NCBI RefSeq assembly: GCF_964194025.1
Contig: NC_134469.1
Location: 57,908,001 to 57,972,000 of the forward strand
Length of the DNA stretch: 64,000 nt
Source: Convolutriloba macropyga
Lineage: Eukaryota
Reading direction: 5' to 3'
A program made the position numbers and the translations under genes. The notes below the pieces were generated by a model. That model had not been told where the DNA came from. It ran no database searches and was given only the letters and a program-made list of their open reading frames with translations. This document shows positions 7,458 to 58,499 of this stretch, piece after piece (position 1 is the stretch's first letter; each line of letters begins with the position of its first letter).

Positions 7458-9698
7458 TTTTTAGAATAGCCAATTCATGATTTTTTAATACATTTATTTG
7501 TGAACAAAATTAAGAACACATTTGAACTGGAGCTGTTTTTAAATTTAGTTACTGTTTTAGCATGGATGCATAATCCAATACATCAGGTCAGTTATTTTTT
7601 CGAATTAGGTTGAAAAAATGAAAAACGACAGACATTCTGTGATGGATGTATGATGGATTCGATTGGTCAGTTTTTAGTCCATTTTGATAGTAGTCAGTGT
7701 TCAAGATTTGAATTGATGAGAATTTTGCGATTAACTTAGGTTCTGTAAAAAGATTGTCTACCTAAGGAAGTTAATATTGACTGTGAGAAGAAAGTTTTCG
7801 ATGTGGTCCTGATCATGTACCCTTACATCAACGAGAAAATTAGCTTGGTTTTTATTGCAGGCAAGCGTAGCAGATGACATTCAAAAATAGGCACAAGAGA
7901 ACCCCAGAAGCTTCTTTGAATGGAGAAATTGCCTCGTTTTAATAACATCAGGGACCATAGTAACATAGTAGAAAACAAAAACTCTTAGAGTACTATGAAA
8001 CAGCACTGATATTGCGTTCTACTAATGAAATATTTTGAATCAGTACTGATTAATATGAGATTAGGGTCCGGGATGCTGAATTTAGCAATTCTTAGACCAA
8101 GGGATTCACTGCGAATTAACACATTGAAATCTTGCAACATTTGGGTCTGAAATTAAATGGCAGCTTGTTGAATCAACTAGATCTAGCTTTTTTCCTTACT
8201 TTGTGTTCCTTTGATATAATCAAATCCTGTCAACAGGTGAAGAGCAACACCAAATTGATTATTAAAAATGTTGAATGATTGATGAATATTTTTGAAGGAA
8301 GATAGTTAGCTATAACTTGTCAACTCACATTGAGCTAATGAAAGAAAATTCAAAATATCGTCAAAATCATAATTACCGAAAGCTAACAAACCCCCCCCCC
8401 CCCCTCCCCATCACCACCACCAACACCGTCGCCGGTACAACCCCGCACTCCCTCTCCCTCACCAAAAAACGATGATTGAGGAGGGTGAATTGAAATTGCA
8501 AGGTGACTGCATGCCTGAATGGCCCGGTGGCAGGTATGCAGGCAATCATGCATTGGGAGGGAAGGGAAGGAGGGAGGGAGGGAGGGGGAAGAGGGGCGCA
8601 ATTTGTATCACATCAGAAAGAGACTGGAGTCTGGCTGCGAATACTAATGGCACAAAGCTGGGAAAATAACTTCACTCCAAATCACGTTCTCCTCAATTCA
8701 ATGAGCATCCTATCACCGGAAGGTATGGAAGCGTGAAATTATGTAATTACAGGCATGAATAAAAGTGCGTCTCAATTGATTCTCAATTCTTCTCTTTTTT
8801 TTCTGTCTCTATCCTACCTGAAATTGTGTCTTTTCCATTCCTTTGAAATTTGCCAGTATATTCCAGTCCGAGGGGGAAATTGTGGCAATAAAAGTTTGCT
8901 TTAATGTCATTTTCCCTAAAATTAAAGTAGACTTCTCTGCCCTGTGATATTAAAGAAAAGCGTTGTTGACATTTAATCAATAATTAAGTGACCATCTTAG
9001 GTTTTTTGGCACACTCAAATCATATAGAGCTACTTTCGCTGTCTCAATTTTTGCTTTCATTCAATATATTTTCTCCAGAGAGAAAGCAAACATAGCAGCA
9101 ATACCAACTTCACGCAAGCACAACACCACCAACCATAGTCTGTCTATATTCATTCCCCTCCCCTCAATTTTCAACAAACAGTAAACAGTGTTTATTTATT
9201 TAAGATCCTTGACACTTTTACACTCTTCATAAAACTGAGTGTCCATTTAATTTAGAGATTATTACTCTTGTGTTGCCTCATTCTTTCCATTAGTTATTTT
9301 TATTGCAATTTTTCAATTCAACATTTTGAGTCTCGATTTTTTTGTGCCTTGGAGGTCGAGCAAGTCTAAAGCCACACCAGTATCGAGCTTCTACGGGGTT
9401 TAGTATTGCTATACTTAAAGAGGACAGATCAGATCATCAGCCTTCGTTGGGGTTTTCGATTTAGGGGCAGATAATGATTTGTGTAAGTACAAAGTTAGCT
9501 GATCGGGTCCTGTAATTGACAGGACCATGGTTCATTTTTGGTGAGTTTGAAAAAAACTTCAGAAGCCTTCAGAACCTCCAAAAGCGCCCCCAGAGGGTTA
9601 ACTTTATGATAGCAGAAGTGTTTATATATCTCAAACACAATATTTGAAAGCATATAATATCTGCTGTGTATAACAATTTCTATGCTGTGTAATTTAGC

Positions 9699-9862
9699 TG
9701 TTGCGGATGCAACTTCAAGATGGCTAAATATGGAAGTTAAGATGATTTGCCGCAAAAAACTTGACTTTATGTCCCACATTGCTAACTGTCAGTTACCAAA
9801 AACATGGAAACAAAACATCTGAATTTGACTTTTTCAATGCTAGAAATATGTTTTTCACTACA
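9699..9862 (+). repeat. 5' LTR (164 bp)
   Basis: tgttgcggatgc...ttcactaca. Differs from the 3' LTR at 2 positions (gcta/gata and atttga/attgga). Confidence 0.95.
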
Positions 9863-9972
9863 TATTAATGGTAACTAACCGACATTCAACCTTCTGATGT
9901 TACAATTACAGACGCTAACGATTACTTGGTTGTGACAAGAGCAGACAACGATCTCCTGCATGGATTTTTTAC

Positions 9973-10106
9973 TGGAATCAGATGTCACCAAGAACAATTT
10001 TTTTTGGAAGTTGGGTTTCAGACGTCACCCCTACAAGAGGTTCTAGTTTTTTTACTGGTTTCAGACGTCACCAGCAGAAGTCCGCCCGAGGTCTCAGACG
10101 CCACCT
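9973..10106 (+). repeat. Cluster 1 of the 18-nt NGGT-N10-ACCN' hairpin motif (4 copies)
   Basis: TGGAATCAGATGTCACCA at 9973, GGGTTTCAGACGTCACCC at 10013, TGGTTTCAGACGTCACCA at 10056, AGGTCTCAGACGCCACCT at 10089. Confidence 0.85.
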
Positions 10107-10330
10107 CTGATGTCCTGTTCCCCGGTTAGATCGAGCCAAAAATCTCTAATTTTTTCGACAAAAAGCCACCAAAAAATTGAAATTTGTCCCCCAAAAACCT
10201 GTTTTCTGCTACTATAACACCTCGATTGATAAACTTCGACTAGTTTTATTTTTCTAGTAGCAAGTAAAAGCAATTTAACTACTTTGAAAGAAAAATTTGG
10301 TGAGAAAAAGGCCAAAAGTCAGAAAAACGG

Positions 10331-11610
10331 TCGCAAAATCAGAAAAATCAAAAAAATCCATTTTGATTTTCTGATTGCATATTCTAATGAAATACCAAAA
10401 AAGTTTTTGAACTATTTTTTTAGCTAGTTTTCAAATAGCGAGAAGGCCATTCTAGTCGATATGTCATACTGGAGTCTTAGAAACAAGAAATGTTAGAAAA
10501 TTTTTTCTGAAATCAGAAAAATCAAAAAACCCATTTTGATTTTCTGGCCCCATATCTTATTGATTCACAAAATAAACTCTTAAACTATCTTTTTGAGTTA
10601 GTTTTGCAGTAGCCAGAAAGCTATTTTGGTCGATATAGTATACTGAGTCATCAAAAATGTGAATTGTCAGAAAATTGTTTGTGAAATCAGAAAAATCAAA
10701 AAACCCATTTTGATTTTCTGACCCCGTATCTTATTGATTCACAAAATAAACTCTTAAACTATCTTTGTGAGTTAGTTTTGCAGTAGCCAGAAAGCTCTTT
10801 TGGTCGATATAGTATACTGAGTCATCAAAAACGAGAATTGTCAGAAAATTGTTTTCTGAATTCAGAAAAATCAAAAAACCCATTTTGATTTTCTGACCCC
10901 ATATCTTATTGATTCACAAAAAAAACTCTTAAACTATCTTTTTGAGTTAGTTTTGCAGTAGCCAGAAAGCTATTTTGGTCGATATAGTGTACTGAGTCAT
11001 CAAAAACGAGAATTGTCAGAAAATTGTTTGTGAAATCAGAAAAATCAAAAAACCCATTTTGATTTTCTGACCCCATATCTTATTGATTCACAAATTAAAC
11101 TCTTAAACTATCTTTGTGAGTTACTTTTGCAGTAGCCAGAAAGCTATTTTGGTCGATATAGTATACTGAGTCATCAAAAACGAGAATTGTCAGAAAATTT
11201 TTCTGAAATCAGAAAAATCAAAAAAACCATTTTTATTTTCTGACCCCATATCTTATTGATTCACAAAATAAACTCTTAAACTATCTTTGTGAGTTAGTTT
11301 TGCAGTAGCCAGAAAGTTGTTTTAGTCGATATAGTACACTGGGATCTCAAAAAACAAGAAAGATCAGGAATATTTTAAAATTTTTTCTGAAGCCAGAAAA
11401 ATAAAAAAAAAATCCTTTTGATTCCTGACCTTATACCCTGTCTATTTGCAGTTTGAACTCTTATGCTAGCACTGTGAGTTAATTTTACACTGGAGAGAAA
11501 GCTATTTAGGTCAGTACATCGAATTGTGATCTCAATAACGCGAATTGCCAAGAAAACTTTTTTGAAATCAGAAAAAAAAAATTCGAAAAATAGTTTATAT
11601 TTCTGACTAC
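10331..11610. repeat. ~174-bp tandem array (~7.3 units) inside the BEL leader
   Basis: Unit anchor aatcagaaaaa (or a close variant) at 10337, 10511, 10685, 10860, 11034, 11207, 11391 and 11566. Central units are near-identical; edge units are diverged. Confidence 0.95.
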
Positions 11611-12136
11611 ACATCGCCTTGAAAGCAAACCAAGTTGTCAAACTAGCCCTCTGATTTACCGTGCAATTGCCGAAGGTTGATATTTAGTTGATATATGAGT
11701 CAGCCTCAGAAAAAAAAGAGAAGTTAGAAAGGCCTTCCGAAAAAAGAAAAGAAAAACGGTTTCGATTTTTTCGGACTGCACAAAAAAAACCTAAAGTGTG
11801 AATCAAACAGTCTAACTCATTTTTTGAGTAAGATTTTGAAATTGTCTCAAAATTTTTCTTTTCGAATATATTATATCTGGAGTCTGGAATCAATAAGAGT
11901 TACAGAAAAAAGTTCGAAACAGGTTTCTTTAAAAATAGAAAACACTTATTACAAAATCCCAAGAACACCTCCGATAAAGAAAGCAAAACACATAAAACAA
12001 CTTCCCAACTAGAACAAAGCTTTGATTTTTTGAAAGATTTGCAAAACGATATATATAAAATATAGCCTTCAGCAGAAAAAAAGCAAAAAGTTTTCCCCTG
12101 TTAACTTTAAGAACCGTTTAATTTTTTCCTTGTCCG

Positions 12137-12318
12137 CGGTCACAAACGTCACCGAGAAGAAGTCCCTATTCCCCTGCTGGTCTCAGTAGTCACCAATCAG
12201 AAGAACAAATTTTGCACGGTTCCAGTAGTTACCGAGAAGAAATCGATAATTTTTACTGGTTTCAGAAGTCACCATTGTGAAATGAGAAGCCTTTTCTTTT
12301 TGGTATCAGTAGTCACCC
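12137..12318 (+). repeat. Cluster 2 of the 18-nt NGGT-N10-ACCN' hairpin motif (5 copies)
   Basis: CGGTCACAAACGTCACCG at 12137, TGGTCTCAGTAGTCACCA at 12178, CGGTTCCAGTAGTTACCG at 12217, TGGTTTCAGAAGTCACCA at 12257, TGGTATCAGTAGTCACCC at 12301. Confidence 0.85.
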
Positions 12319-12927
12319 CATTTAGAAGATTTCAATTAATTCAAGAAGAGCAAAACATCTCTCAAGAACCTCAAGCAGTTCTACACAGTAAAGTCTTTAG
12401 TGGGTTTTCCTAAATCAACACAGAGACAACTCAACAACCAACGTTTTTTCTTGTAACCCTCGTTGCCTAGTCGCTCCGCAAAAAAAAAAAGAAAAAAAAA
12501 TATATATATTTTTAGCAACCTCCTTTTGGGCTTCTCGTAAAATTAAAACAGTAGAACTAATTGTTTTTGCTTACATTCAGGGAGAAAGCACAAACCATTA
12601 CAGTCATTGTCCGAAGAAAAAAAACTATTTGAAAACAAAAAAGAAAATCTATTCGTAGCAGTTATTTGGTCCTGCAAAAAAAAAAGACGATAAACGTTCG
12701 AACGATTTTTTTTTCTTTTTTAGCAATTAAAATCTACTATAATTAGCACCACCACAACCTTAGGATTCTTGTTTTTGAAAATATTTGCGTCGCTGAACTT
12801 TTATAGGAAATTTTTGGCTGATTAGCCAAATTAGATTTTGACATCAAAAGTTCGTCGCTCCGGTTTTTAGCCGTTTTCATTTTAACCTGAAACACAAGCA
12901 TAACAACAACAACAACAGAGATCAAAG

Positions 12928-15900
12928 ATGTCGCAAAGGAACAACGACGAGTGTCAGTTTGCAGTGAACATGTTTAAATCAACGGAAAGTTCTTTGAAAA
13001 GCCAGCTTGATTTGTTGCAAAAGGCAATAGACGATAGAAAGAGCTTCCGATCATTAAATCTACTGATAAGCAGAGCCAAAACGCTGCAAACAGAATTGGA
13101 CAAGAAGACAGAAGCAGTGTTGAGGGCGAAGCCTCACCAGAGTACAGCAACTTCGATTCTCGACAGACAGAAAGCCCTAACATCCAGACTGCAGCAATCC
13201 GAACTGGAAGTTGACACATTGGACGATGATGGTCTATTAAGCCAGTCTTCAACAAGATTTCGCGATGACGTCACAATTCCTTCTCGCCCAAGCAGCCGAC
13301 GACTGGATTCAGAACGATCAACACCAACACGCAATGTTATCGTTGAGCAAGCAGCCAGTTCACAAACGAACGACACAACAGTCTTCATTAATCCACCGCC
13401 CATTCCTCCAAGACCAATCAAGCCACCACTATTCCTGAACAACCAGCAAATCCAGGATCCTCTTATTAGCCATTTGATAAATCAACAACAAAATTTCCAT
13501 CAACAGAACAGAAACCAGTTTGTTGACTCCAACTCAACACATCATGCTAGTCATTATCAACCAACGGCATCAAACACCCTAGAACAACCCAATGCTAATC
13601 ATCAACAAGAAATCTTAACTTTGCCGCCTCTCAACATGTCAAACTTGGATCATCAGTTGAACCAAGAACCCAATTTCCTAACGGCAAAGGATTTAGAATT
13701 CAGCGGTTCTCAATCCAATCAAAAGCAGTTTGTTAACCGTTTCAGTTTATCTTTGACCCCTGAAAGTCAGAGAGGCTTCCGAAACGTCAACGTACCTTGT
13801 CTAGCCCTTCAAGATGAAGGTGGAAACCCATTCCTTGGCAGAGCAATTATTGACAAGCCTCTTAATCATGGACCTGAATACGTGACAATAGATCAAAACC
13901 CTCACTCATCTAAACAAAACTACGTTCAGCCTATGCATTATTGTTTCACAAACAATCTACAACCAACAACAGCTGCAAACGTAGTTTCGGATGTCCAGAG
14001 CTATTGTTTTTCAAAAGAACAAGATGTTCAACTCAAACCTCAAAAGTCTGAAAACAGTTTTGTGCAACGTGTCAGTTCTTTCAACATCGGTCCCAATGAT
14101 CCTGTAAAAAACACAACCTTGACAAACAGCTTCCCAATTCAGGGTTTAGCAGTTCAAAGGCCTCCTGTTTACCCATATACTACCCCAGCGCAAGCAAACA
14201 TCCAGCCAGTGCAGAGCGATCTACAACTTCTTACAACGCATCCCACAACCTCTCAAGAAGCGAACAATCCAGTCCATAGCTTCAATCCGGCTACTCAAAC
14301 CAGTATGGTGGATATTGGTCAGAACAACACAAACGCTTATTTATCATATCCTTTACCCATTAAGAACATGGCAGCTGAACCCGCTGTAAATCAAAGTCAT
14401 TCAAACGACGAAATTTAGCAGTTGCGACCTCCCCCTCTACCTAATCTTTATCCAACTAACATCTTGCCAACTTCAAGCGTAAGGCAGCATCAGGCTCCAG
14501 TGTTTGCTACAGCTGGACAATTTATCCCCTCAATGACCAATAGTGAACTTCAGCCAACATCTGTCGACCTAAAATGCTCGATCAAATTACCGCCATTAAA
14601 ATTGCAAAATTTTAATGGTAACCCCATGCACTATCTCGAGTGGATAAATAATTTTTTCTCAATGGTTCACAATAACATTTCAATTACTGACACACACAGA
14701 ATAACCTACCTACAGAATTCAGTGTCGGGTAAGGCAAAGGATCTGATACATGCTTACTCTTGTGATCCATCCTATTATAATACAGCCCTCAACGAGATAA
14801 TGAGCCGCTTTGGCGACCCTTCAGTTGTTGTCAACGCTTTTATCAACCAATTAGAGAGCTGGAAATGTAACATTTCTTACAACAAGCAATCCTTCATAGC
14901 ATTTTCTTCATTTCTAAAGAGACTAGTCCAGGCTTTTCAGAACCTAGGTTTTCAAGCCGACCTTCAATCGTCTACTTTATTGAGGAAAGCGAAAGAAAAA
15001 ATTCCCCACAATTTGCTTCTTAAATGATTTGAATACACCCTGACAGAGAATGTTACAACAACTACCCTTGTTGAGTTTCAAAAATGGCTTGATGTTCAAG
15101 CAAGGGTTTATGACAAAGTAAACCAGGAAAATAGAACCAGTACCTTCACTCACAACAAAAACGGTAATTATCCTGCTGTGACAGCACAACAATCGGTTCA
15201 AGAACAGTTTAAGCAAACAACTGCAAGACAGTCTCAAAGGAACGATTTAGATCAAGGAAAGGTTAATCACAACGGCTCGAAAAATGAGCAACAGTTTGCA
15301 AACAAGCACACAAATTGTGTTCAATGTCACAAACCGCATTTTGTTGCAACTTGTTCAGACTACCATAAATTGTCCCCTGAAGGTCGATTTCAAACTATCC
15401 AGAAAAATAGCTTGTGTAAAAACTGTCTAAGTAATCAACATCGCAGAGACACTTGTCCCTTCTCGAAGCGTTGTCAAGTGTGTAATGGTTTTCACCATAC
15501 AACACTACATAATCCAGCTAAACAATTCAGCAGAACACATGCCGCTTTTACTACCAGCAACGTCCAACAGCAAACTAAAACCCCAGGTCAACAAAATTGG
15601 TCATCGAAAGACGACAACAACTCACAAACGCAAAAAAGTATTGAAGCAACTCAGAATAAATTAACACAATTCAAACCCAAAAGCAATCTCAGGTATGGAA
15701 AAAATTTCGGAAATAATAATAATCAACAGTCATCGAAACATGCGAATTTGAATGGACCTTCTACCAGCCAAAATTTCAATGTCAACCAAATATCCAGTAC
15801 ACCGAAATATTGGTTTGAGCAGTTACTGCTGCTGCCAGTATCCTTTATCAAAGAAGATAAAGTATTCGACACGTATGCTCTCATTGACCCCGGCAGTCAG

Positions 15901-18900
15901 TTTACGTTTTTATTAGATGCTGTTTCTGACTACCTGGAACTCCCACGCGAATATCAATCTTCAACTACTGTTCAATATCTAAGCGTTGATTACGAAATGC
16001 CCCTATCAAAAATAAAGCAACCAATAACAGTTTGCCCTTTCAATCAGTTTGATGAAAAGTTCCAAATATCCAGAGCCTACAGCACCCCTACATTAAACGT
16101 TAATGCAGCCAATGTCACTGAGCTTAACTATGTTTGCGATGCATTCAATGAACTTCGACACATATATTTCCCAGACATTGCCGAAGGTAAGATTGGAGCA
16201 CTCCTTGGTGTCAATGCTTTTGCCTTTACGCATCCTACTGAAGTAATTCAAGGCACCGAAATCCGCCCCTTCGGAGTAAAGACAAAGCTGGGATGGACAC
16301 TTGCAGGAGAGTACCTGAACACACTACGAAACTGCTCTTCAAAATCTTCTAATAAATCGAAAGTATTTGTATACCATGTCTGTCGGTAAAGTCCAGAACA
16401 ACCCTTGGACAATTTGATACAAGAATTTTGGTCAATAGAGAATGATGGTACCAGAAAAGAAGATAATACTATCACTGAAGATGAAAAGTCTGCCATTCGA
16501 ATACTTGAGAGTACTATCAACCACACAGGGGAAAGGTATGAAATAGGTCTTCCATGGAAAGTACCTGCCAATCTTCAAAATAACTATTTTTCTGCCCTCA
16601 ATCAGCTAAACAGTTTGAACAAACGACTTAATAATGATCCAAAACTAAGTGATATGTACCAACAGACTCTTGTCACAGATCTCGAGAAAAATTACGTCAA
16701 GCCAGTGGAAATGACAGACCCACCCCCTGAGAAAATATGGTACTTGCCGCATCACCCTGTTCAAAGCGCAAACAAACCAAACAAAGTGCGTCGTGTCGCC
16801 AATGCAGCGTCAAAATTCAAAGGCGAGTCACTAAATTCCAATCTTCTAACAGGACCAGACCTCTTAAACAGTCTAATAGGAATTTTGGTCAGATTTCGTT
16901 AAAAACCTATTGCTATTTTGGCAGACATTGAAGGAATGTTTATGCAAATCGGCATCCGAAATGAAGATCAATCTGCACTACGTTTCCTATGGTCTATTGA
17001 CAACGATGTGCGACAGTTTCAATTCACCAGATTGATTTTCGGTGCAACTTGCTCACCATCTTGTGCAATTTTTGTCTTAAACAGATGCGCAGAGGACAAC
17101 GTCGAGACATATCCAAAAGCACAGAGCGCTATAAAGTCTTATTTTTTATATGGATGACTACATCCAGTCCTTCGACTCTCCTGAAAATGCCAACGCGACT
17201 GCATTTGAAGTAAAGAACTGCCTGAGAGCCGGTGGTTTCCGCCTCACAAAATTCCTGTCAAATCATCAACAGGCTCTTCAGTGTATTACTCCAGAAGACC
17301 TCGAGGAGCCCAAGAGTGAAACAAGAGTCCTCGGACAAAAATGGAACCTTAAAAAAGATACATTTTTCATGAAATCCCTAGGAGAATTCCCTAAAGAAGC
17401 TGAACAATACACTCAACGGAAACTTTTCAGTCTGGTGTCATCGATTTTTGACCCAATTGGGTTTCTTGGCCCAATGACAATAAAGTTCAAAATTCTTCTT
17501 CAGCAGCTTTGGAAGTTAGGTAGAAAATGGGACGAGCCACTCCCAATTGAACTTCTACATCCCTTACAAAAGCTCCTTAACAGTTATCACTCTATGCCTC
17601 AACTTGAAATTCCACGACAGATGACAACACAGAATCTACTGGAGACAGAGAACCAGTTGCATGTTTTTGTTGATGCATCGATTGTTACAACGTGTGCTGT
17701 TGTCTACCTCAGGAGCTTGAATAAGACCAGCAACGAAGTACAAACTGCATTCGTGATCGGGAAATGCAAAGTAGCGCTCGTAAAACAGTTGAGCGTTCCA
17801 AATTTGGAACTAGAGGCATCTGTCACAGGTGTTCGACTCCTGAATTTTGTTAGACATGAACTCTCTGTTGAAATCAGCAATGTTTTTTATTGGACGGATA
17901 GTCAAGTTGTCCTTGACTGGATTGGTTCTTCCAAGAAGCAACCAGTTTTTGTTGCTAATCGCATTGCAGAAATAAAAGTAAAAAGCAAACCTGACAATTG
18001 GAACCATATTGCGACAAACTTAAACCCAGCAGATCACGGTACTCGTGGTTTAGAACCCAAGGAAATTGAAGCAAAATGGTTTAAGCCACCAGATTTTCTC
18101 AACACAAATGATGTCTTTTGTAGACCTACAAAGCAAATGCCGATTTGTGCTGCAACAACACGATCTGCCTTAAGAACCAAGAAACCATTACTCGACCCTA
18201 AACAGTTTTCAACATGGACAAAGATTTTGCTAACGATAGCTACTGTTTTCAATCTGATCTACAGAGCGAAAAAACAGCTTGACAATCACCATCAATACAC
18301 TGTTGAAGACATTGAATTATCAAAATCTTACTTGATACAAATGTCGCAAGTCAATAGCTTCCCAACCGTCATCGAGTTGCTAAAAAGTAGCCGTAAACTG
18401 GACCCGAAATTCAAACACAGGTCGTTAAACCCAATGCTTGATAAGAACGGTATATTACGCGTCTGTGGAAGGCTAATTTTTGCTCCCAGTGAACTCGAGT
18501 TGGCCAAGCGGCCAATACTACTTCATGCAAAAGATCACATTTGTCGTTTATACCTCGAACATGCCCATCGCATCTGTGTGCATCAGGGAACAGAAGCCAC
18601 TAAGGCTTTTGTACAGCAAAGGTACTACGTAATTGGTCTCCGCAGGACACTGCAGAGCATTAGATACAAATGCTTCCTTTGTCGACGTTTCGAACCGCAA
18701 AACATTGAGACTTTTATGGCACCGCTACCTGATTGCCGCTTCCCGACTGAAAACAAACAATTTACATTTGCCAACTGCGGATTAGACTTTTTCGGCCCAT
18801 TTTACATTGAGGAAGAAAAAGATAAGTTTCAGAAACACTACGGCCTCATCTTTACTTGTCTGGTAACGCGAGCTGTTCATTTGGAAACCTGTCCAGATTT

Positions 18901-19663
18901 GAATACAGACACTTTTCTGAACGCCTACCGCCGCTTCACTTCGCGAAGATGTCAGCCCGCTGATTTGTACAGTGACAACGGTAAGACTTTTCTTGGTGCC
19001 AAAGAAGAACTCAAAAGGTGTCTGAATGATCTCGACAAGGATAAAATTCACAAAGCACTTGCAGCACAGAACACCAAGTGGCAGTTCAACCCACCTTATG
19101 GCCCTCATTTTGGAGGCGCTTGGGAGCGGCTGATCCAGAGTGTCAAGCGGACGCTCCTGATCATTCTAGGGTCAAGAAAGTTTACTTTTGACGTTTTCCA
19201 CACAATCATGGTTGAAGCAGAAGCTATGATGAACTCCAGACCACTTACAAACGTGTCGGACGCCATGGAAAACGAAGAACCATTGACGCCAAACCATTTT
19301 TCACTTCAACGTCCTTACAACTCTCTTCCCCCTGGTATCTTCCCGTCAACCAAGCCAGCTAACATGAAGTCTTGGAAAAATGTTCAACAATTCCTCAACC
19401 ACATCTGGAGGAGACTGGTCCGGGAATACCTACCGACCTTGATAAAGCGACCAAAATGGACCGAAAACGCCGGGAATTCACTCAAAGTCAACGATGTGGT
19501 GTGGATCCTGAAAGACTTCACCCCACGTGGTATTTGGCCTCTGGGAAGAGTAGAAGAAGTGTTCCCTGGACGAGATGGTAACAACAGAGTAGTTAAAGTG
19601 AAAACGGCTTACGGCACCTTCGTCCGCCCCGTGTCCGGTCTCGCCCGTGTTTTCGCTGATTAG
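12928..19663 (+). pseudogene. BEL/Pao gag-pol polyprotein (~2240 codons), disrupted
   Basis: ORFs starting at 12928, 14422, 15178, 16405 and 16918 share one frame, separated by stops at 14416, 15025, 16387 and 16900. An extra T in the run at ~17142-17147 splits the (F)YMDD motif. Motifs: DUF1759-like KLPPLKLQNFNGNP, three Cys/His knuckles (CVQCHKPHFVATC, CKNCLSNQHRRDTC, CQVCNGFHHTTLH), protease ALIDPGSQ, RT YLPHHPV/ADIEGMF/YMDD, RNase H HVFVDAS, integrase H-H-CFLC plus GLDFFGP/SDNG, and a C-terminal WPLGRVEEVFPGRDG segment. Confidence 0.95.
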
Positions 19664-19828
19664 CTTTTTTGTTGATATTTTTTGCGCTCCGGTTTTAGGC
19701 AAAGGGGGTTGCATATAGTTTTATTCAATTTAATTTGGGTTTATGATTTCTAACTGGAATTGGAAACATATTTATTTGGTGGATTTATTCGTGTTTTATC
19801 CTCTTATTCCTGTTGCCCCCGTGGAGCA

Positions 19829-19992
19829 TGTTGCGGATGCAACTTCAAGATGGCTAAATATGGAAGTTAAGATGATTTGCCGCAAAAAACTTGACTTTAT
19901 GTCCCACATTGATAACTGTCAGTTACCAAAAACATGGAAACAAAACATCTGAATTGGACTTTTTCAATGCTAGAAATATGTTTTTCACTACA
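19829..19992 (+). repeat. 3' LTR (164 bp)
   Basis: Direct repeat of 9699-9862, followed by the TSD TTAGC. Confidence 0.95.
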
Positions 19993-21699
19993 TTAGCTAT
20001 CGATAGACTTTAGAAATTTTAAAGGTAAAATGTATGCAACCGATTCTCGGTTGAAAAATAAGAAACTTCCACAGTTCTATGTCGTTTTAGCCCCTTTCGG
20101 AGAAAAAAATCTGAAACTTTAGAAATATGAAAAATTTCTCAGAAGATTACAAAAATCATCCACAAAACTTCGAGGTTTTTCAAATTTAATCACGGTTATG
20201 AATTGTCTTTTACTTTGTATTTTACAGATAAAACATATGCTTATAAATATTTGAGTAACTATTAATTAAGTTCTATAAAGCTGCTGTTTGGTTTTTTAAG
20301 CGTAAAACAAGGAGGCTCGTTAATGCGCGTTTGCACATGATGTTCCGACCCGCGCTCATCTACATTTTTGACTCAACTGTCTTTTGACTTACATTTCTGA
20401 CAGAGATAATCAAAAATAGATTTTCGAGTTTTAAAACAATCGTTGCACAACCAAACTAATAATTGAATTAAATAATGCCATGCCTCATTACAACGAGATT
20501 TGCATTGAAAAGACTACGAGAAAAAACAACAAAAACAAAAGAGCAAAAAACAAAAATTTCAGACAAAACCATAACAACACAAATTTATTTTTTTCCTAAA
20601 TACACAGCAGATGGGATTTTTCTTTAATGAGAATAGGTAACGCGAAATTCAAGAATTAATCTGCCTTTTTTAAACCAAATAATTTCAAGTCTTAAAAATC
20701 ATTAGCTTTTAATAAAATAATTCTTATTAAATTTACTAAAAAGTCATAGTGAAACCAATAGGACCTGTTTTTGGTTAGACTAAGCCATTGGAATGGACTA
20801 TAGATGTTGAAAAACTCAAAAAAAGACTAACAACAAAATAAAAACATTGCGAAAACACAAATTAGTGAAGCCATCATAGTGAAAATCATTAGCAATTATC
20901 TAAGTGTTATGTATTTTTAATGCAAATTCTATTTATAGTAATTCAAGTAAATTATACTGAATGAATAAATAGGTTCAATTGAGCCACTTTTGAAAATCAT
21001 TGGGATCTCTTGTTACGCGATTGTGCTCAAACAGGAGAAAAAGAAACACAAAAACAGCACTCACATAATTTTATGGATACTGTTCAACAAACAAAACATT
21101 AGTTACGTCTTAGTATACGTATAAATGTTATGTTTTAAATTAGGGAATTGTATGGGAGCTCTCAATGATGAGACAAATTTACAAGTTGACGATAACCACA
21201 ACAAAATCTGAAAAATTGAAAAACCCTTAAAATCAAAAAAATGTATAATATTATAAACTTTAAGACCGTTCGCTATAAACTGACTGCTTTGGTTATCATT
21301 ATTCAATCAATCATCTTTTACAAGCTGACTTACACCATTTTACGGCTACCTAAAGAATAAGAAAAACAGGCTAACACAGCAAATTCAAAAAAAAATTGAG
21401 CGAGAAAAGTGACGAAGCCATTAAAAAAATGAGCTTTTCAGTAAAAACTTTTCTTCTTTCAATTACTTTTTTACAGCTTTGGGGTTCTTCTTTTTAACAA
21501 TTTTACTCCAATGAATCAGCGAACATGAACAAATACATTAAAACAACGAATTTTTTGAGAAAATCCGTATTATCAACGTGATTAAATTCAATGACTTTCA
21601 ACGGAAGCTAGAAAATACACTAAGTTAAGCCTCGATGAGAGAACGAGGACGTTCGTGATTCAATACTCATCAATAAGGTATTAAAAACCATTGACAATG

Positions 21700-36150: not shown

Positions 36151-39100
36151 CTAGAAGGCGAAGTCTAAGCTGTTAAAAGCATAATCTATTAAAATTATGA
36201 ATCGATTAAATTAACATGAATCGATTAAAATTATCAATTGTGCTTTGTTTTTGAATGTCAATAATGTTTGCGGACCATAAACTACAGGTTGACCACAAAG
36301 GAGAGAAAAGTCGCAAAGCTCAATAAACCATTGTTTTGTTTTGAAAACAAGGATTTTTCAGTACGACCATATGCTTTCGACAAAAAAACTAGATAGGTTT
36401 CCATTAAACAACCAAGGAAATCAATTAGGCCTGCCACTAGTAATAAATGACTTGAACTGTTGTGTTATTTAGTTAGCATAAAAATAGCAAAAAATGCGAA
36501 CACGTTTTCAAAAAGGCAGCGACTGATTACAATCCTATTTATTATGAGACCGTAAAAACAATGATTATACTCAAATAGCCGTGTTATTGTTTTTCGTTAA
36601 TTATGAACAAGTAACTTTTTCAAATAATAGGGATATCCACAATTTGACGAAAAGGCTCAATATATCAAAAATGAGTGATTCATTTCTTTTTTGATAATTA
36701 TCGCGTTAATTAACAAAAAAAAACGTAAAATTTTAGTTCGAGAAAAATCTCAAAGGAAGTGCCATTAAAACCTAACCTCTTTTAAGTTAACACAAACTCT
36801 TCAGCACTTTATTGTGTTATTCCGTTGATTTTTTAATATAGTGTACTACTAAGCTTAATTCGTGCCATTTTTGGTGAGAAATGGCTAAATTTTGAAATAC
36901 TGGCAATATTTTCTGCCAAAATGCTGAATTAAACGGTTCAACAACACTCTTCCATCTTCAGCAGGAAATTCAACACGGCTGTTTTCAACAGTTTCAATAA
37001 TTTATTCAATAAAAATGGCAAAAACTTGAAAAAAAAACGAAATTGTGAACAAAATCAACGAATATCAGTCAAATGTGCACATACATTTAAACCTCAATAT
37101 TTCCATGGAAAGAAACAAAATTGGCAAAAATCTTTCTATTTTCTACTGCACGCTGGATAGGATTTCTATTGATAGCACTCACAAAACTTTATAATAAATG
37201 TTTCGATTCGCCAAAATTGACTAAACTAAAAACCCGTTTGAGCATTATTTCCTCCCATACTAAAGTGGGTTGGGACAGTTAAGTTTTCAAAATTGAGATC
37301 ACCAAACCGTTAATTTCGATTGGAGTCGTCCAAAACAAGAGTATGGTTGAGTTTTCAATTCCAGGTAAAAAAAATTCCAGGTAAAATCAATGGGACAGTA
37401 TAGACCATGGGTTAGAACTAGAAAAGAACATGCATGTATTTGAATGAAGGAGATTTTGTTTTTCTCTCTACGAGGTCTCTGTGACAGCCATTTTCGAACT
37501 AGTTGTTTTCATTTTTGGAAAAACACTTAAAACTTAGTTAAAGTAATAACGGACTTTAAAAAAACAGAACTAGTCAATAAAAAACAGCTGTTTTAGAGAC
37601 TTCATAGCGAGACAAACATAAACTTCTCTAGACAAAGCAAAGTTTGTAACAACTGGCCCTGACTTCCTGTACATTTTTGTTCCGAACCCCTTAAGTGGGG
37701 GAAGAACTGTTTGCTCAACTGGTTGTTTTTCAATTAGTCAAATTTCGCTGGTCGATATTTTTTTTTTACCGTACAGTGTTGTGAGTAGCATCATTTTCGT
37801 CGTTTGACTTAGTCACATCAACTACTTGTCCAAGTTAATTGCTAAGCATTAGGAAGTCAATCTAATTAATATTTTTAGGTAGAAGCTTACTCTTGTTATT
37901 TCGTATGACTCCAAAAACGTTTACAAAACTGTTGTTTTTTTAGTTTCCAATTTTGTTCTTTTCTGTGCCCCTTTTTAGCGTAGTTTCAACAAAAAGAGAA
38001 ATTGCTGACTCTTGCAAGTGATTTCGAATGTAGTCTTCATTGTTGCTTTATCAATTGAATAACTGTTTTTTGGCGTTGATGCTACAAGTTTTCAAAATTC
38101 TTTTTTATTTTAGGTTTTTTTTTAAAAATTTTTTGGGTTCTTTTGCTGTCTTGTTCTATTCTCAGATTAATAACACAGCAATTACCCGTATTATTTTACA
38201 CAAATGGCATTGGAAGAAGGCGCAATTGATTATATTTTTTGTTTTTAGGGAGAAGAGTTTGATTTTGTAGGCATCGACACTGACACATTTTTTCTCGCAG
38301 AATTGAATTGACTTTTTAATTAATGTTGTGTTTTTTATCTTTGTTTGAATGTGTGAATCGAGCCTTTCAGTTTATTCACCTTATAGCTAATGGTTTTCAT
38401 GACTTTTAAGTAGTTGTTTTCAAAAAAATAAACGTGTTACTTAACGTTTTCTACTTAAAGACAGAACCTGTGGATTTTCTCAATAAAGACAGAACCTATA
38501 TCTTTTCGGTTAACATTCCAGTCATTTATTGAATTTTATGTTTATCTGATGCTATTCTGAATTTTTTTATGTTTTTTCAAAAATAAAGGCAGCCATTGTG
38601 TTTGATGCTTGTTGTTTTTATATTTTTGCCGATTTTGCCGTTTTTTTGTCTCTTAGTCTCCTCAATGGATCATCAGCCTTCCAATGAAGCTTTTTAAATT
38701 TGCATAGTTTGAGCTTAAAACAATTTTTTAAAATGGTTTCATCATTTGTTTTCGCAGAATAACTGAATTTTTTGAAAGTATTTTGTCTGTTCCGCATTTG
38801 GTGGTCAGTTAACTGAAAAACGTGTTTGAGCAGGGTCGAAATATTATGTGCGAACGCACATTAGCGAGCCTCTTTGTCGTATTTAGGTTTATGCTCAAAA
38901 CCAACTGCTGCTAATTGAAAGCCCTAATTGACTTAAATGATCAATGCGATTATGCGAAACGAAAGTTCTTGGATCTCTAAAATCATATGAAACTGATCAT
39001 AAAATCAGTCTTATATCAAGTTTGTTGAATTAAATATCAATCACTAACGATTATAGAGATCAGTCGAAGTCTGCGCGGAAATTAGTTCGCATGATTCTCA

Positions 39101-46581: not shown

Positions 46582-49500
46582 GAAGTGAACTAGATATTTT
46601 GAACAGAACTGGAACTTCAATTTGAAGTAAATCAAAGTGCAATTTTGAATTTGCAAAATAATGGGCATACCCAAACCTGGTACACCTCAACTCTTTAAAG
46701 TATATTCATCATTGGACTCTGAAAAATTGTGGAGATGTTCCCCTATTGATTTTCCATATATAATAGGGATGTGCGGCCGGTTACACCTTTTTGATCTGAA
46801 CTAGTTAAGTAAAGTTTTCTTGATTAAGAGTATTTAAAAAGGCAATTTATCAGGTTTTCGAAAAACCCTGGGTACAGAATTTGTCCGACACCTCCCGGAA
46901 TGCGAACGAGCTATTGATTGATAACCAATCAATGATGGGAGGAACCCCTAATGATCCTCTATTGCAAGTATATTTTTAGGGCCAAACAGACCAATTGCCA
47001 CCAGTTATTAACACCGGAAGTAGTGTGTGAGTAAGAAATAATGGGATTAATCAGTCGTAATGTCATGCACGTATGAATTAAGTTTTTGCATGATCTTGGG
47101 AAGGGATTAGGATGTAAAATGAAGATTTTTGCTAATATTGTTAGTTATCACAGGAAGGTGTATTGTTCGGAAAAGTTGAAGTTGGGTTGACGTGATACTT
47201 GGGGGATAGACTAAATTAGGTACGAAGAATCCAGTTTAAGTGTCAGATTTGACCGCACACCAACTTGCACGGCACTAGCGCACGCCCGTGCTGTGGCACG
47301 TAAAATTTGGATTGCCCCAGTCAATTTTGACGAATTCGGATTTTTCGGGTTTCGGTACCCACGAGTCTTTAAAAATTTTCAAATTGCAAACGACTGGCAA
47401 CGGCTGATCCGATTGTCATGAAACCTGGCTGGCAGGTTGGTGGCACCCTATTTTTAATAGAAATTTTTATCCGAATACGTTTTGACCACTACTTTCCGAG
47501 ATTTTGATTTCTGAAATTTGGGGTCATCCGGGAGGTAGATGAAAAGTGTGCGTGGTTTTTGTTCCTGTTCTAGTGGGAGTTAGGCCATGAAAATTTGTGG
47601 GTAGGTGCAAATGTGAGAAGAACTTCCTTGAAAATAATTAGTTTTATTTAACTTGACCTTTCATCTTGAATGATTGATCCCTTATTGAACCCTAGAGATC
47701 AAAATGTAGTAGGTTTTTTGGAAAAGTAGACTTTTCGGCTGTTATAACAGGGAATTCCGTGAAATGTTGTGCAAACTCAGAATAACAATTGTTCTTAGCT
47801 TTAGGATGAGTTTAGTTCTTTATTCATTATATGAATTTTGACAGGGATTGATTGCAGCTGGTTAATTTGAAAGCGGAAAAAGAGGAATAAGAACTTTTCA
47901 GAGCAACGTTCAATGTTTACTAAGCACACTCTGATTGACATGTCAAGAGATATAATGGTGTGAAATTGTTTAAAGAGTCCAGAGGTCGTTTGAATAAGAT
48001 AAGGAGAAAGTTGAACAATTGTTGAGAGCAGTTGAATGACAGAGCATAAATTGATACTGATTTGTTTGCACAGCAAACAGAGGCCTCCTACAGATGGTGA
48101 CAGATTTCAAGTGTGAGTTGCAATGTTTGTTTAAGAGATTATAGTTTGTTTGCTTAAGATAAGAGCGTATTGGTTGCGTATAAATTGAAGTGACACGCAG
48201 AGAGATCAGAGAGGGTAGAAGCGACTTGTTGAGACACAGAAGTTTGGACACAGGAGAGAGTTGCGCACAAGCGAGAGAAAGTAGTTGGTTTAGTGGGACT
48301 AAACTTTAGAAGCTAGTGTGAAAAGCAGAGAGGAGACTGAACGCTGGAAGTTTGTAATTGCTAGACAAGTTGGGATATTGAGAGCGTTTTTTGATTTAAT
48401 TCATTTGGGAAGTGAACTAGATATTTTGAACAGAACTGGAATTTCAATTTGAGGTAAATCAAAGTGCAGTTTTGAATTTGCAAAATAATGGGCATCCCCA
48501 AACCTGGTACAACTCAACTCTTTAAGGTATATTCATCATTGGACTCTGAAAAATTGTGGAGATGTTCCCCTATTGATTTTCCATATATAATAGGGATGTG
48601 CGGCCGGTTACACCTTTTTTATCTGAACTAGTTAAGTAAAGTTTTGTTGATTAAGAGTATTTAAAAAGGCAATTTATCAGGTTTTCGAAAAACCCTGGGT
48701 ACAGAATTTGTCCGACACCTCCCGGAATGCGAACGAGCTATTGATTGATAACCAATCAATGATGGGAGGAACCCCTAATGATCCTCTATTGCAAGTATAT
48801 TTTTAGGGCCAAACAGACCAATTGCCACCAGTTATTAACACCGGAAGTAGTGTGTGAGTAAGAAATAATGGGATTAATCAATCGTAATGTCATGCACGTA
48901 TGAATTAAGGTTTTGCATGATCTTGAGAAGGGATTAGGATGTAAAATGACGATTTTTGCTAATATTGGTATTTATCACAGGAAGGTGTATTTTTCGGAAA
49001 AGTTGAAGTTGGGTTGACGTGATACTTGGGGGATAGACTAAATTAGGTACGAAGAATCCAGTTTAAGTCTCAGATTTGACCGCACACCAACTTGCACGGG
49101 ACTAGCGCACGCCCGTGCTGTGGCACGTACAATTTGGATTGCCCCAGTCAATTTTGACGAACTCGGATTTTTCGGGTTTCGGTACGCACGAGTCTTTAAA
49201 AATTTTCAAATTGCAAACGACTGGCAACGGCAGATCCGATTGTCATGAAACCTGGCGGGCAGGTTGGTGGTACCCTATTTTTATTAGAAATTTTTATCCG
49301 AATACGTTTTGACCACTACTTTCTGAGATATTGATTTCTGAAATTTGGGGTCATCCGGGAGGTAGATGAAAAGTGTGCGTGGTTTTTGTTCCTGTTCTAG
49401 TGGGAGTTAGGCCATAAAAATTTGTGGGTAGGTGCAAATGTGAGAAGAACTTCCTTGAAAATAATTAGTTTTAATTAACTTGACCTTTCATCTTGAATGA

Positions 49501-50254
49501 TTGATCCCTTATTGAACCCTAGAGATCAAAATGTAGTAGGTTTTTTGGAAAAGTAGACTTTTCGGCTGTTATAACAGGGAATTCCGTGAAATGTTGTGCA
49601 AACTCAGAATAACAATTGTTCTTAGCTTTAGGATGAGTTTAGTTCTTTATTCATTATATGAATTTTGACAGGGATTGATTGCAGCTGGTTAATTTGAAAG
49701 CGGAAAAAGAGGAATAAGAACTTTTCAGAGCAACGTTCAGTGTTTACTAAGCACACCCTGATTGACATGTCAAGTGCATATATGAGATATAATGGTGTGA
49801 ATTTGTTTAAAGAGTCCAGAGGTCGTTTGAATAAGATAAGGAGAAAGTTGAACAATGGTTGATAGCAGTTGAATGACAGAGCATAAATTGATACTGATTT
49901 GTTTGCACAGCAAACAAAGGCCTCCTACAGATGGTGACAGATTTCAAGTGTGAGTTGCAATGTTTGTTTAAGAGATTATAGTTTGTTTGCTTAAGATAAG
50001 AGCGTATTGGTTGAGTATAAATTGAAGTGACACGCAGAGAGATCAGAGAGGGTTGAAGCGACTTGTTGAGACACAGAAGTTTGGACACAGGAGAGAGTTG
50101 CGCACAGGCGAAAGAAAGTAGTTGGTTTAGTGGGACTAAACTTTAGAAGCTAGTGTGAAAAGCAGAGAGGAGACTGAACGCTGGAAGTTTGTATTTGCAA
50201 GACAAGTTGGGATATTGAAAGCGTTTTTTGATTTAATTCATTTGGGAAGTGAAC
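46582..50254. repeat. Tandem duplication of a ~1.83-kb unit (2 copies, highly similar)
   Basis: GAAGTGAAC at 46582, 48409 and 50246 delimits copies of 1827 and 1837 bp. Confidence 0.95.
47275..47300 (-). mobile_element. Helitron-like 3' terminus (second copy at 49102-49127)
   Basis: Minus strand reads cgtgc-caca-gcacg (hairpin), ggcgtgcg, then CTAG|T. The 5' TC end was not identified. Confidence 0.55.
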
Positions 50255-54964: not shown

Positions 54965-55873
54965 CTCTTTTGTTCCGACCTACTTTAGTGGGGGGGGGGG
55001 GGGGGGGGGGGGGGAGGGAGGGGGAGGAACCATATACTCAAATGGGTTTTTTTTGTTCTCTCAATTTTCGCCGATCGGTAAATTCATCGTAGACAGTTGT
55101 GTGTGGTATCATTGAAAACCCGTCCAGCGTAGAATATGGAATATAAAGGATTTTTCTTAAATTTATTTTTAGAGCGAATAATCGTGGTTTAAATTTTTGT
55201 GAATATTAGACCGATTTGCGTTATTTTTATTCACATTTTCTAAATTTTTTGCCGAAATTTCGTCAATTTTGCTAAAATATGTAAAAATTTTAAATCATAG
55301 CACTGTCCATTTTGTTTATAAAGACAAAAAGTTATTGTTGACTAATTTATTTATTTTTTTGGCCAAACTTTTGGCTAAAAATTTCAAAATTCAGCCCTTT
55401 TCATCAAAAATTGCCCCAAAATAAGCCTTTTTTTAGTCCAATCTGATTAACTATCTGATCTGAGGTTTAAAATTTGTTGAATAATTGACCGATTCCCCTT
55501 GTGACTAAAGTCTGCACGGTAGACATATAAAATTAAGTTTTTAAACGCACATTTTTGGCTTAGATCGTACTTCGAACGAAGTTTCTAGTGCACAGTAGTC
55601 TCTCAGACATTGGTTTGCTCAGGATGGTCTGATCAGAGCATATTTGACTCAGACAGTTCGATCAGAAGTGACATCGGTCTAGAAAATCAACCTGGGTAGC
55701 AATTATTCCTTCAATTGCACTCCAGGCCGACAAGCTGAAGTAAACGTTGCAACTTTTCGCTCATCAAAACAAAGCTTTTATTCAGAAAAAATTTTTAGTG
55801 CCACAACATATGACTCCTCATCCTTTTGATGTGAAACTTTGCTAACAAAATCAATGTAATCATACACACGCAC

Positions 55874-55904
<31 letters not shown>

Positions 55905-57029
55905 AACACACACAAGCAAACAAACAAACACACACACACACACACACTATTGTCCCGACCAGATTTTAAGGTGAAGAACTCTGAACATAAAAGATAGTTT
56001 CTGTTCAGTCAATCTTGGTGAACTGATATATTTCTCGTTAAAAGCTGGTGGTATCATTAAAAAGCCTAAAATTGCTGAGTTTTTGCCTCAGTTTTTCTTT
56101 CAAAAGAGTTACTAACGGACATCAGGTTTATCTTAAGTTATGTCCGATTTTGAAAACGTTTTTTGTTCTGACCCCACTTTTAGTGGGGGGAGGTACTATA
56201 TACTTAACTGGTTTTTTTTGTTCAGAAAATTTTGACCGATCGATATTTTCATCGTAGAGAGTTGTGTGTGGTATCATTAAAAAGCCTGCTGTGCAGCGTA
56301 GAATATGGAATTAAAAAGATTTTTTTGAATTTCTATTAGAGCGAGTTATCGTGCATTAAATTTTATTGAATATTAGACCAATTTGCGTTATTTTTAATCA
56401 CATTTTCTGAATTTTTTGCCGAAATTTCGTCAATTTTGCTAAAATATGTAAAAATTTTAAATCATAGCACTGTCCATTTTGTTTATAAAGACAAAAGGTT
56501 ATTGTTGACTAATTTATTTATTTTTTTGGCCAAACTTTTGGCTAAAAATTTCAAAATTCAGCCCTTTTCATCAAAAATTGCCCAAAATAAGCTTTTTTTA
56601 GTCCAATCTGATTAACTATCTGATCTGAGGTTTAAAATTTGTTGAATAAATGACCGATTTCCCTTGTGACTAAAGTCTGCACGGTAGACATATAAAATTA
56701 GGTTTTAAACGCACATTTTTGGCTTAGATCGTACTTCGAACGAAGTTTCTAGTGCACAATAGTCTCTCAGACATTGGTTTGCTCAGGATGGTCTGATCAG
56801 AGCATATTTGACTCAGACAGTCCGATCAGAAGTGACATCGGTCTAGAAAATCAACCTGGGTAGCAAATATTCCTTCAATTGCACTCCAGGCCGACAAGCT
56901 GAAGTAAACGTTGCAACTTTTCGCTCATCAAAACAGAGCTTTTATTCAGAAAAAAATTTTTGTGCCACAACATATGACTCCTCATCCTTTCGATGTGAAA
57001 CTTTGCTAACAAAATCAATGTAATCATAC

Positions 57030-57088
<59 letters not shown>

Positions 57089-57835
57089 AACACACACAAA
57101 CAAACAAACAAGCACACACACACACACTATTGTCCCGACCAGATTTTAAGGTGAAGAACTCTGAACATAAAAGATAGTTTCTGTTCAGTCAATCTTGGTG
57201 AACTGATATATTTCTCGTTAAAAGCTGGTGGTATCATTAAACAGCCTAAAATTGCTGAGTTTTTACCTCAGTTTTTCTTTCAAAAGAGTTACTAACGGAC
57301 ATCAGGTTTATCTTAAGTTATGTCCGATTTTAAAAACGTTTTTTGTTCTGACCCCACTTTTAGTTGGGGGAGGTACTATATACTTAACTGGTTTTTTTTG
57401 TTCAGAAAATTTTGACCGATCGATATTTTCATCGTAGACAGTTGAGTGTGGTATCATTAAAAAGCCTGCTGTGCAGCGTAGAATATGGAATTAAAAAGAT
57501 TTTTTTGAATTTCTATTAGAGCGAGTTATCGTGCATTAAATTTTTTTGAATATTAGACCAATTTGCGTTATTTTTAATCACATTTTCTGAATTCTTAGCC
57601 AAGTTTTCGTCATTTTTGCTAAAATACGTAAAAATTTTTAATCATATCACTGTCCAAAGACAAAAAGGTATTGTTGATTATGTTATTTATTTTTTCGGCC
57701 AAACTTTTGGCTAAAAATTTCAAAATTCGGCCCAATTTATCAAAAACTGCCCGAAATAAGCTTTTTTAAGTCCAATCTGATTAACTGTCTGATGTGAGAT
57801 TTAAAATTTGATGAATAATAGACCGATTTCCCTTC
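54965..57835. repeat. ~1180-bp tandem repeat (~2.4 copies) carrying a (CA)n microsatellite; resembles non-autonomous Helitron/Helentron elements
   Basis: Anchors accccacttttagt at 56171 and 57351, with a diverged copy at ~54978. CA tracts at ~55864-55946 and 57027-57126. Hairpin acttcg-aa-cgaagt followed by ttCTAGt at ~55570 and 56733. Confidence 0.85.
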
Positions 57836-58499
57836 TTTTTTTTCACATTTTTAGAAATTTTGCTCATTTTTTCGTTAATTTTGCTAAGTTGTTAATTTTG
57901 TTAAAATTAGTGCTATTGATTTTGCCTGAAGACCCAGAGGAGGGTTACTGATTATTTTTTTTGTCTATTTTGGCTTAAAAAATGATGACTTTTAAAATAA
58001 ACTTTAGACTTTTTTTTTCAAAAAAGGCACCAATTGTTTCTTTGGCCCATTTTTTAAAATTTGCTGGAGATACCCACCTCAAACTGCTAACAGACGCTCG
58101 AACCAACTCAAAAAAAGAACAATTCCACTTCCTTTTCTTTTAAGAGTGCTCTGGAATAAAAATGTTGCTCTTTTTTTGCCGGCTTTTAACAATCATTATG
58201 CTAGCTAAATGAATCTTCCATTTTTGATATATAGACATTTTTTTGCCAAGTTATCTGTTTCCTTTGAAAATGGATTAAAAAATTGCTGCTATTGAATGTG
58301 CTTCATTTTCAAAGTTCGTTTTAGTTTTTTCATTGTTTTCGACAAAAAATATGATTTCCCTGAAACAATTTCTTCCGTAAAGACTTTTTTAACAGTTTAG
58401 TTTTCTTTCTATGATTATTCTTTATTACACAGCCTAAAAAGTTCCGATCAAAATTCAGTTACTACCCACTCCCGGTTTTGTCAGAAAAAGGCGCTATAA

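Follow-up and report, generated by a model that had tools for sequence, protein, structure and literature searches.

The window, a stretch of 64,000 nucleotides from Convolutriloba macropyga (NC_134469.1, positions 57,908,001 to 57,972,000), carries on its forward strand a BEL/Pao retrotransposon of 10.3 kb (9699-19992; Table 1). Its LTRs are paired and flanked by a 5-bp target-site duplication, with the same 5-mer at 9694-9698 before the 5' LTR and at 19993-19997 after the 3' LTR, as is characteristic of BEL/Pao (Belpaoviridae). The gag-pol region encodes the Pfam domains DUF1759, Peptidase_A17, DUF5641 and Integrase_H2C2 (accessions cited: PF03564, PF05380, PF18701), and three Cys-His knuckles are encoded in the ORF at 15178-16389; these BEL-type Gag/Pol domains together with three knuckles likewise place the element in Belpaoviridae. 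The leader is 3.07 kb long and contains a first hairpin cluster, a 174-bp tandem repeat and a second hairpin cluster, the distance between the clusters ranging from 667 to 2048 nt at 14 loci. Up to 21 upstream ATGs occur between cluster 1 and gag.

Table 1. Features of the BEL/Pao element and its leader (window positions)
Feature	Positions	Strand	Remarks
5' LTR	9699..9862	+	164 bp, TG...CA; 99% identity to 19829-19992
Degenerate PBS for tRNA-Trp(CCA) 3' end	9869..9886	+	duplex -14.8 kcal/mol vs -37.3 for a perfect site
Auxiliary box	9887..9898	+	12-nt perfect complement of tRNA-Trp nt 37-48
Stemless extra unit	9909..9915	+	7-nt complement of tRNA-Trp nt 23-29
Hairpin cluster 1	9973..10107	+	units at 9973, 10013, 10056, 10089
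Tandem repeat	10336..11353	+	174 bp, 5.9 copies; variable spacer between clusters
Hairpin cluster 2	12137..12318	+	units at 12137, 12178, 12217, 12257, 12301
gag-pol, BEL/Pao	12928..19663	+	split over five ORFs in window copy
3' LTR	19829..19992	+	164 bp; pair of 9699-9862

The hairpin clusters had been noticed in an initial annotation of the sequence, which described nine copies of an 18-nt unit, four in the first cluster and five in the second. All nine are present where they had been placed, with exactly the spacings given (40, 43 and 33 bp in cluster 1; 41, 39, 40 and 44 bp in cluster 2). The GGT...ACC core was found with its full three base pairs in eight of the nine, but copy 1 begins with GGA. 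As had been claimed, the outer base is complementary in eight units (T-A four times, C-G twice, G-C and A-T once each), the exception being the last copy (T/C), the stem is extended by a further pair in copies 3 and 4, and the hexamer GACGTC is present in copies 2 and 3. Cluster 2, said to lie about 600 bp ahead of the gag ATG, ends 610 nt before it. Cluster 1 is situated in the leader, but it begins 110 nt past the LTR end (9862), beyond the PBS, and not immediately after the LTR. The supposed 10-nt loop is resolved by ViennaRNA, in eight of nine copies, into an AGNN-type tetraloop closed by a C-G pair above a 2x2 internal loop, which is 1x1 in one copy. The string GGT-N10-ACC occurs 13 times in the window, eight of these within the array, where 5.4 would be expected, and none of 100 shuffled sequences reached 13.

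The array is a recurrent feature of this genome. A 16-nt unit pattern gave 1032 genome matches compared to 4 for the reversed control, and a two-unit pattern gave 1711 compared to 3. Among 20 further copies of family A, cluster 2 is present in all 20 and cluster 1 in 14 within the stretch examined, with the variants of the window fixed. The two-cluster array is kept in seven families (A, B, B', G, C, D and E, assigned by eye from the linkers and by a tree), the RT segments of which are 55-67% identical to that of the window, and the tree places the array-bearing families together on one side of a branch with support 82/93 (not starred). An adjacent unit pair was detected at 39 of 40 loci of this clade, of which 20 had been chosen by the motif itself, so that their count is circular, and 20 by protease similarity (19 of these 20 carry the pair). 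It was found at none of 40 loci from other BEL families (pol about 25-40% identical), a comparison in which LTR pairs were mapped for 8 outgroup loci and coverage of the leader was assumed for the rest. A search of the same 40 outgroup loci for hairpin arrays of any kind returned just plain tandem repeats, at three loci among the matches listed. Beyond this genome, the motif had no match in a collection of viral contigs, which holds no eukaryote genomes, and seven matches in metagenome contigs (again not eukaryote genomes), none of them BEL-like; most were GC-rich and one was a plain 24-bp tandem repeat. The protease segment of a relative, P0010, reaches a best identity of 42% in this genome.

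Evidence that the units act as RNA comes from their stems. For one real copy per family we compiled 53 units from the seven families (26 from cluster 1, 27 from cluster 2). The outer pair (-1/+1) is Watson-Crick in 42 of the 53, against a shuffled mean of 14.6, with all four pair types represented, and the next pair outward (-2/+2) in 26 of 53, against 15.5. Flanking positions -3 and -5 gave no pairing signal in these 53 units, and -4 none overall. When identical inherited states were collapsed per slot, the excess persisted at -1/+1 (13/23 vs 6.5 expected, p=0.003) and at -2/+2 (16/34 vs 9.5 expected, p=0.012). Control pairings were much rarer, with 11-18 of 53 in a slid register and 7 of 39 when flanks were matched to the neighbouring unit. 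About seven double changes were identified at equivalent slots, including a G-C to A-U exchange inside the core in families D and E, and the covariation score (0.283 vs 0.105) was attained by none of 500 shuffles, although such shuffles ignore relatedness; by the same kind of shuffle, the number of pairs with double changes was not significant (98/500). The sister-family comparison proposed in the initial annotation thus bears out its view that the stem-loops are under selection. An alternative register slid by 3, which is 76% paired and resembles an anticodon loop, was rejected for want of covariation support.

The RNAalifold consensus comprises a 4-bp stem, a 2x2 internal loop, a C-G pair and a 4-nt loop. 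The C6-G11 pair and A7 are invariant in all 53 units, a pyrimidine mismatch occupies positions 4/13 in 48, and loop positions 9-10 vary. Cluster 1 is the tighter of the two, its outer pair being Watson-Crick in 24 of 26 units compared to 18 of 27 in cluster 2. Folded singly, the hairpins have little stability (-1.1 to -4.5 kcal/mol, with no fold for copy 1), and clusters fold no better than shuffled sequences (z 0.02, 0.09 and -0.83). Stem G-U and A-C counts (11 vs 9) do not indicate which strand folds. Rfam returned nothing at the gathering score; there were ten weak matches in 9500-13000, all far under the cut-off. Because the outer stem pairs covary, we consider the units to be selected hairpins rather than dyad DNA sites, and the comparison of sequences shows, at that level, an RNA element with a stem under selection for pairing that has been kept across the clade. 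Conserved leader stem-loops with compensatory changes are also the hallmark of the retroviral psi/DIS elements.

The reverse transcription primer of these elements proved informative. In the families where LTR ends were mapped, a TGG follows 5-8 nt downstream and is succeeded by family-specific sequence. An 18-nt site in one B' copy led to the host tRNA-Trp(CCA) genes (16 pattern matches, with ARAGORN calling seven of the eight examined), and families A, B' and D each include copies with the perfect 18-nt complement of tRNA-Trp at the PBS slot (13 matches). Copying of the primer tRNA during plus-strand synthesis leaves a perfect complement, as described for mouse ERVs (PMC7472051), and the perfect tRNA-Trp copies behind LTR ends are the signature of this process; judged by sequence, they show tRNA-Trp to be the primer of the clade. 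At one family-D locus (L232, around C1:44502322-44502366), the perfect tRNA-Trp complement behind the LTR end extends to 39 nt (nt 37-75), meaning that plus-strand copying went far beyond the usual 18-nt stop.

The common PBS is nevertheless a poor one, with duplex energies of -13.5 to -18.8 kcal/mol in the seven families against -37.3 for a perfect site. It is adjoined by an auxiliary box, the longest tRNA-Trp complement in the whole element, which targets the 3' strand of the anticodon stem and the variable loop. The box is perfect in 12 of 13 family-A 5' ends and is present with 8-12 nt in six of the seven families, family D being without it, while two outgroup families with a tRNA-Trp PBS have a 7-nt version. 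Because tRNA-Trp copies occur at the PBS slot and a box follows the PBS, we regard an extended tRNA-Trp site as well supported. A weak site for the tRNA 3' end with a conserved separate box for another arm is an arrangement shared with the multipartite PBS of the Ty1/Ty3 type.

Each family keeps its own degenerate PBS despite perfect revertants, which hints at selection against a perfect PBS. Perfect sites were counted in 2 of 14 copies of A, 5 of 12 of B', 3 of 7 of D, 0 of 2 of B, 0 of 2 of C and 0 of 8 of E, tallies that are enriched by the search for perfect sites and do not represent frequencies. A separate observation, confined to family A, is an LTR stretch (9789-9799) complementary to the PBS at 10 of 11 bases. 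Self-priming in the manner of Tf1 was considered for this pairing, which falls to only 6-8 bases in other families, and was rejected because the tRNA-Trp copies settle the primer.

The hairpin units are complementary to this same tRNA, over nt 16-35, with unit positions 5-12 opposite tRNA nt 30-23 (gene numbering); the 3' arm of the unit fits the D-loop GGU and its GG fits the anticodon CC. The tRNA segment nt 23-30 includes the partner strand of the stretch that is complemented by the box. A link of the motif to tRNA had been suspected initially, with the 3' end of tRNA-Leu as candidate; that candidate is not supported, and the tRNA that the units do match is the clade's own primer, tRNA-Trp, in its 5' half. 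All seven of positions 6-12 pair with tRNA-Trp in 25 of 26 cluster-1 units but in 9 of 27 cluster-2 units, and positions 11-16 pair in all 53 in one fixed register with two bulges. The loop is AGAC in 24 of 26 cluster-1 units (33 of 53 overall), while AGTA loops (11 of 53, conserved at two slots) break two central pairs with the tRNA. The stemless unit at 9909 retains its complement in 13 of 13 family-A 5' ends, and in family D the loops are kept though the box is lost.

By duplex energy tRNA-Trp ranks first of 19 tRNA types (-17.4 vs -14.1 for the next), in a tRNA set that is incomplete and partly composed of pseudogenes and with base modifications ignored; 8 of 500 shuffled tRNAs bind the units as well (4 of 400 with a variant gene). 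With opening costs counted, the units have a net binding energy of -8.4 kcal/mol for nt 1-35, which puts tRNA-Trp first among 25 types and is equalled in 8 of 200 column permutations; this test presumes that the box has opened the anticodon stem. If tRNA nt 1-57 keep their fold, the units bind the tRNA no more strongly, in net terms, than they bind shuffled tRNA (74/150). The specificity is limited in other ways also: for nt 1-35, 17% of 24-mers drawn from the leader at matched GC content equal the binding of the mean unit, the units read in antisense also pair well (-15.6 vs -17.2, variant gene), and tRNA-Arg(TCG), which shares the stem, scores -7.3 compared to -8.0. Pairing of the loops with tRNA-Trp, an idea that arose after the data had been seen, is thus suggestive, with modest statistics (p about 0.02-0.04) and one negative test.

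Of several possible explanations for the array, we tentatively favour one in which the loops are repeated additional docking sites for the 5' half of tRNA-Trp, that is, a multi-part mode of primer binding as in Ty1/Ty3 where the box has been multiplied in the form of hairpins; we place its probability a little short of even. The weak PBS and the box would take up the 3' half of tRNA-Trp and open its anticodon stem, and the strand so freed would pair with a hairpin loop, chaperoned by the three-knuckle NC. Before the tRNA arrives, the stem would serve to present the loops and prevent them from being drawn into other folds; being weak, it could then melt and so lengthen the tRNA duplex. Seven to nine copies spread over two clusters would boost capture of the primer into the particle, and one tRNA could bridge two genomic RNAs. 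A more far-reaching version, which we consider rather unlikely, is a distributed tRNA trap: a strong PBS would have been replaced by a deliberately imperfect PBS, the box and 6-9 hairpin-gated sites that together tile tRNA-Trp from the D loop to the CCA end, unfolding it, loading several primers per genome, bridging two genomic RNAs and denying 3' tRNA fragments a perfect target.

The main rival is a multivalent packaging signal, in which Gag/NC would bind each hairpin directly, at an AGNN tetraloop that a C-G pair closes above an internal loop of pyrimidines, and the match to tRNA would be due to chance or reflect only the origin of the motif. Retroviral NC is known to bind tetraloops, and the invariant positions, the free positions 9-10 and the pyrimidine mismatch would suit a tetraloop read by protein equally well. 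Position in the leader and the three-knuckle Gag are also in its favour, and it accounts better for cluster 2. It leaves unexplained, however, the prevalence of AGAC in cluster 1, the stemless copy, and the match to just that tRNA strand which lies opposite the conserved box, and we think it rather unlikely, albeit a serious contender. The two functions, tRNA docking and Gag packaging, are compatible with each other, and in cluster 2 drift may have left only the binding of protein.

The initial annotation had also pointed to dimerisation by kissing loops of the HIV-1 DIS or MLV type, here through the palindrome GACGUY. A self-complementary hexamer (G-U allowed) is indeed available in 23 of 26 cluster-1 units, but in only 9 of 27 in cluster 2, and two family-level variants, one of them present in 14 of 14 family-A copies, break the palindrome yet improve the pairing with the tRNA; as these are both of the changes that discriminate between the two readings, we judge kissing loops improbable. 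The same low standing applies to a host-protein or processing signal, concerned with how a 3-kb leader rich in upstream ATGs is translated, or with export, localisation or splicing. Apart from the abundance of such ATGs, this idea can draw on a donor-like GT after cluster 1 in six of the seven families and an acceptor-like AG before cluster 2 in D and E. Family C, however, is without the donor-like site, the one predicted exon junction examined (for a spliced retrocopy joining the clusters) has no match in the genome, and no Rfam family is found at the cut-off.

More doubtful still is pairing within the genomic RNA between the loops and the box, as a switch or long-range bridge, both being complementary to the same tRNA stem. 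Units of the AGAA type resemble the tRNA's own nt 38-44 and at least 7 bases can pair with the box, but the AGAC loops fit the tRNA and not the box, and family D retained its loops after dropping the box. A series of sites in double-stranded DNA, to be bound by a dimeric transcription factor or an insulator protein, would suit the dyad core and the regular spacing, and repeated factor sites occur in LTR-element leaders (gypsy), but a homodimer would not predict copy-specific matching of flanks in all four Watson-Crick types, and the covariation data make such sites, also raised at the outset, very improbable. Least tenable, and largely refuted, is a multiplied PBS for a tRNA 3' end (tRNA-Leu) or priming by a tRNA half: 19 of 53 units do start with TGG, but only those, the -1 base tracks the +1 base rather than CCA, in the mapped families it is the slot 5-8 nt past the LTR that sets the LTR ends, and 14 pattern-match loci yielded no tRNA gene whose 3' end matches.

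Retroviral leaders contain the psi and DIS hairpins (SL1 and SL3 of HIV-1, the HIV DIS, the GACG loops of MLV), and AGNN is a label in use for tetraloops. The present units are likewise small, located in the leader near the PBS and equipped with a G-containing tetraloop, and many cluster-1 loops contain a palindrome; they differ in being one weak hairpin repeated at 32-47-nt spacing, with the palindrome not kept in cluster 2.

In its working, the closest system to the docking arrangement that we favour is the multipartite PBS of Ty1/Ty3, a short PBS with separate boxes for other primer arms. In Ty1, packaging of the primer and initiation both require boxes that complement the T and D arms of the tRNA, and a tRNA-bridged dimer or circle has been proposed for Ty1/Ty3 (PMC4974528). 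These elements use tRNA-iMet and three single segments directed at the T and D arms (PMC4974528), whereas the BEL clade uses tRNA-Trp, would address the anticodon stem and D loop, and would have its box repeated 6-9 times in the form of covarying hairpins across 2-3 kb. The second tRNA-Lys2 site of Drosophila gypsy (PMC1635307) can be likened to the additional tRNA sites described here, but it is single and located at the 3' end of the genome, in contrast to a hairpin array in the leader. Mouse ETn, MusD and IAP elements share an imperfect common PBS and some copies with a perfect tRNA complement (PMC7472051); in the BEL clade the PBS mismatches are more numerous and are accompanied by auxiliary boxes. 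The T-hairpin of the traffic jam piRNA element was also compared and set aside, as it is a different, U-rich fold (PMC8925976).

Within Belpaoviridae, the element conforms to the ICTV profile (PMC8742986) in its LTRs, gag-pol order and a PBS after the 5' LTR, and its 10.3 kb are at the upper end of the size range. The profile lists tRNA-Arg or tRNA-Gly as primers, describes no leader RNA element or cis-acting RNA structure, and regards replication of the family as poorly understood (PMC8742986). This clade departs from it with LTRs of 150-200 bp and tRNA-Trp as primer, a degenerate tRNA-Trp site taking the place of an 18-nt PBS for tRNA-Arg or tRNA-Gly. PMC3118150 makes no mention of primer, PBS, tRNA or hairpin. 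Full-text literature searches turned up neither an array of this kind nor a tRNA-Trp box described for BEL/Pao, though a description could exist in subscription papers, Repbase or supplements. What appears to be new here is priming of the clade by tRNA-Trp via a degenerate PBS, the post-PBS box, and a complementarity of the loops to the very strand that the box would free.

The array thus represents an RNA element backed by covariation, with a concrete candidate partner in tRNA-Trp nt 16-35, open to testing with short RNAs. If the docking model is true, an animal BEL clade joins the yeast Ty elements in having multipartite primer binding, here repeated and hairpin-gated, and a reason is offered for the survival of a poor PBS in the face of constant reversion. 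If the hairpins are instead a Gag signal, they are still a defined candidate packaging motif, in a group for which we found none described.

Several further features of these leaders and of the window deserve mention. Conserved blocks CTGATTAG, CGTCGCTCCGG and AGCCGTTTTT occur in most families 40-130 nt upstream of the gag ATG (about 12815-12890 in the window); because of the many upstream ATGs, they may represent a translation-initiation element. Leaders of family E contain counterparts of the 174-bp tandem repeat at about 70% identity. Unrelated long direct or tandem repeats are located elsewhere in the window, at 30533-36222, 46582-50083, 55045-57878 and 1-440, with periods of about 800, 1830, 1170 and 29 bp. 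Two single copies (L058 and L125) have deletions between or within units, which is consistent with recombination between repeats. The linker ahead of the last cluster-1 unit (about 10074-10092) is conserved, with a spacing of 32-33 nt in 7 of 7 families while other spacings vary, and in folding models it is predicted to pair with tRNA-Trp nt 5-13. Finally, GAWGTC with a C/T-rich block follows both the last unit of cluster 1 (about 10108-10130) and the first unit of cluster 2 (about 12155-12175), and because the two clusters share this block, it suggests that cluster 2 arose by duplication.
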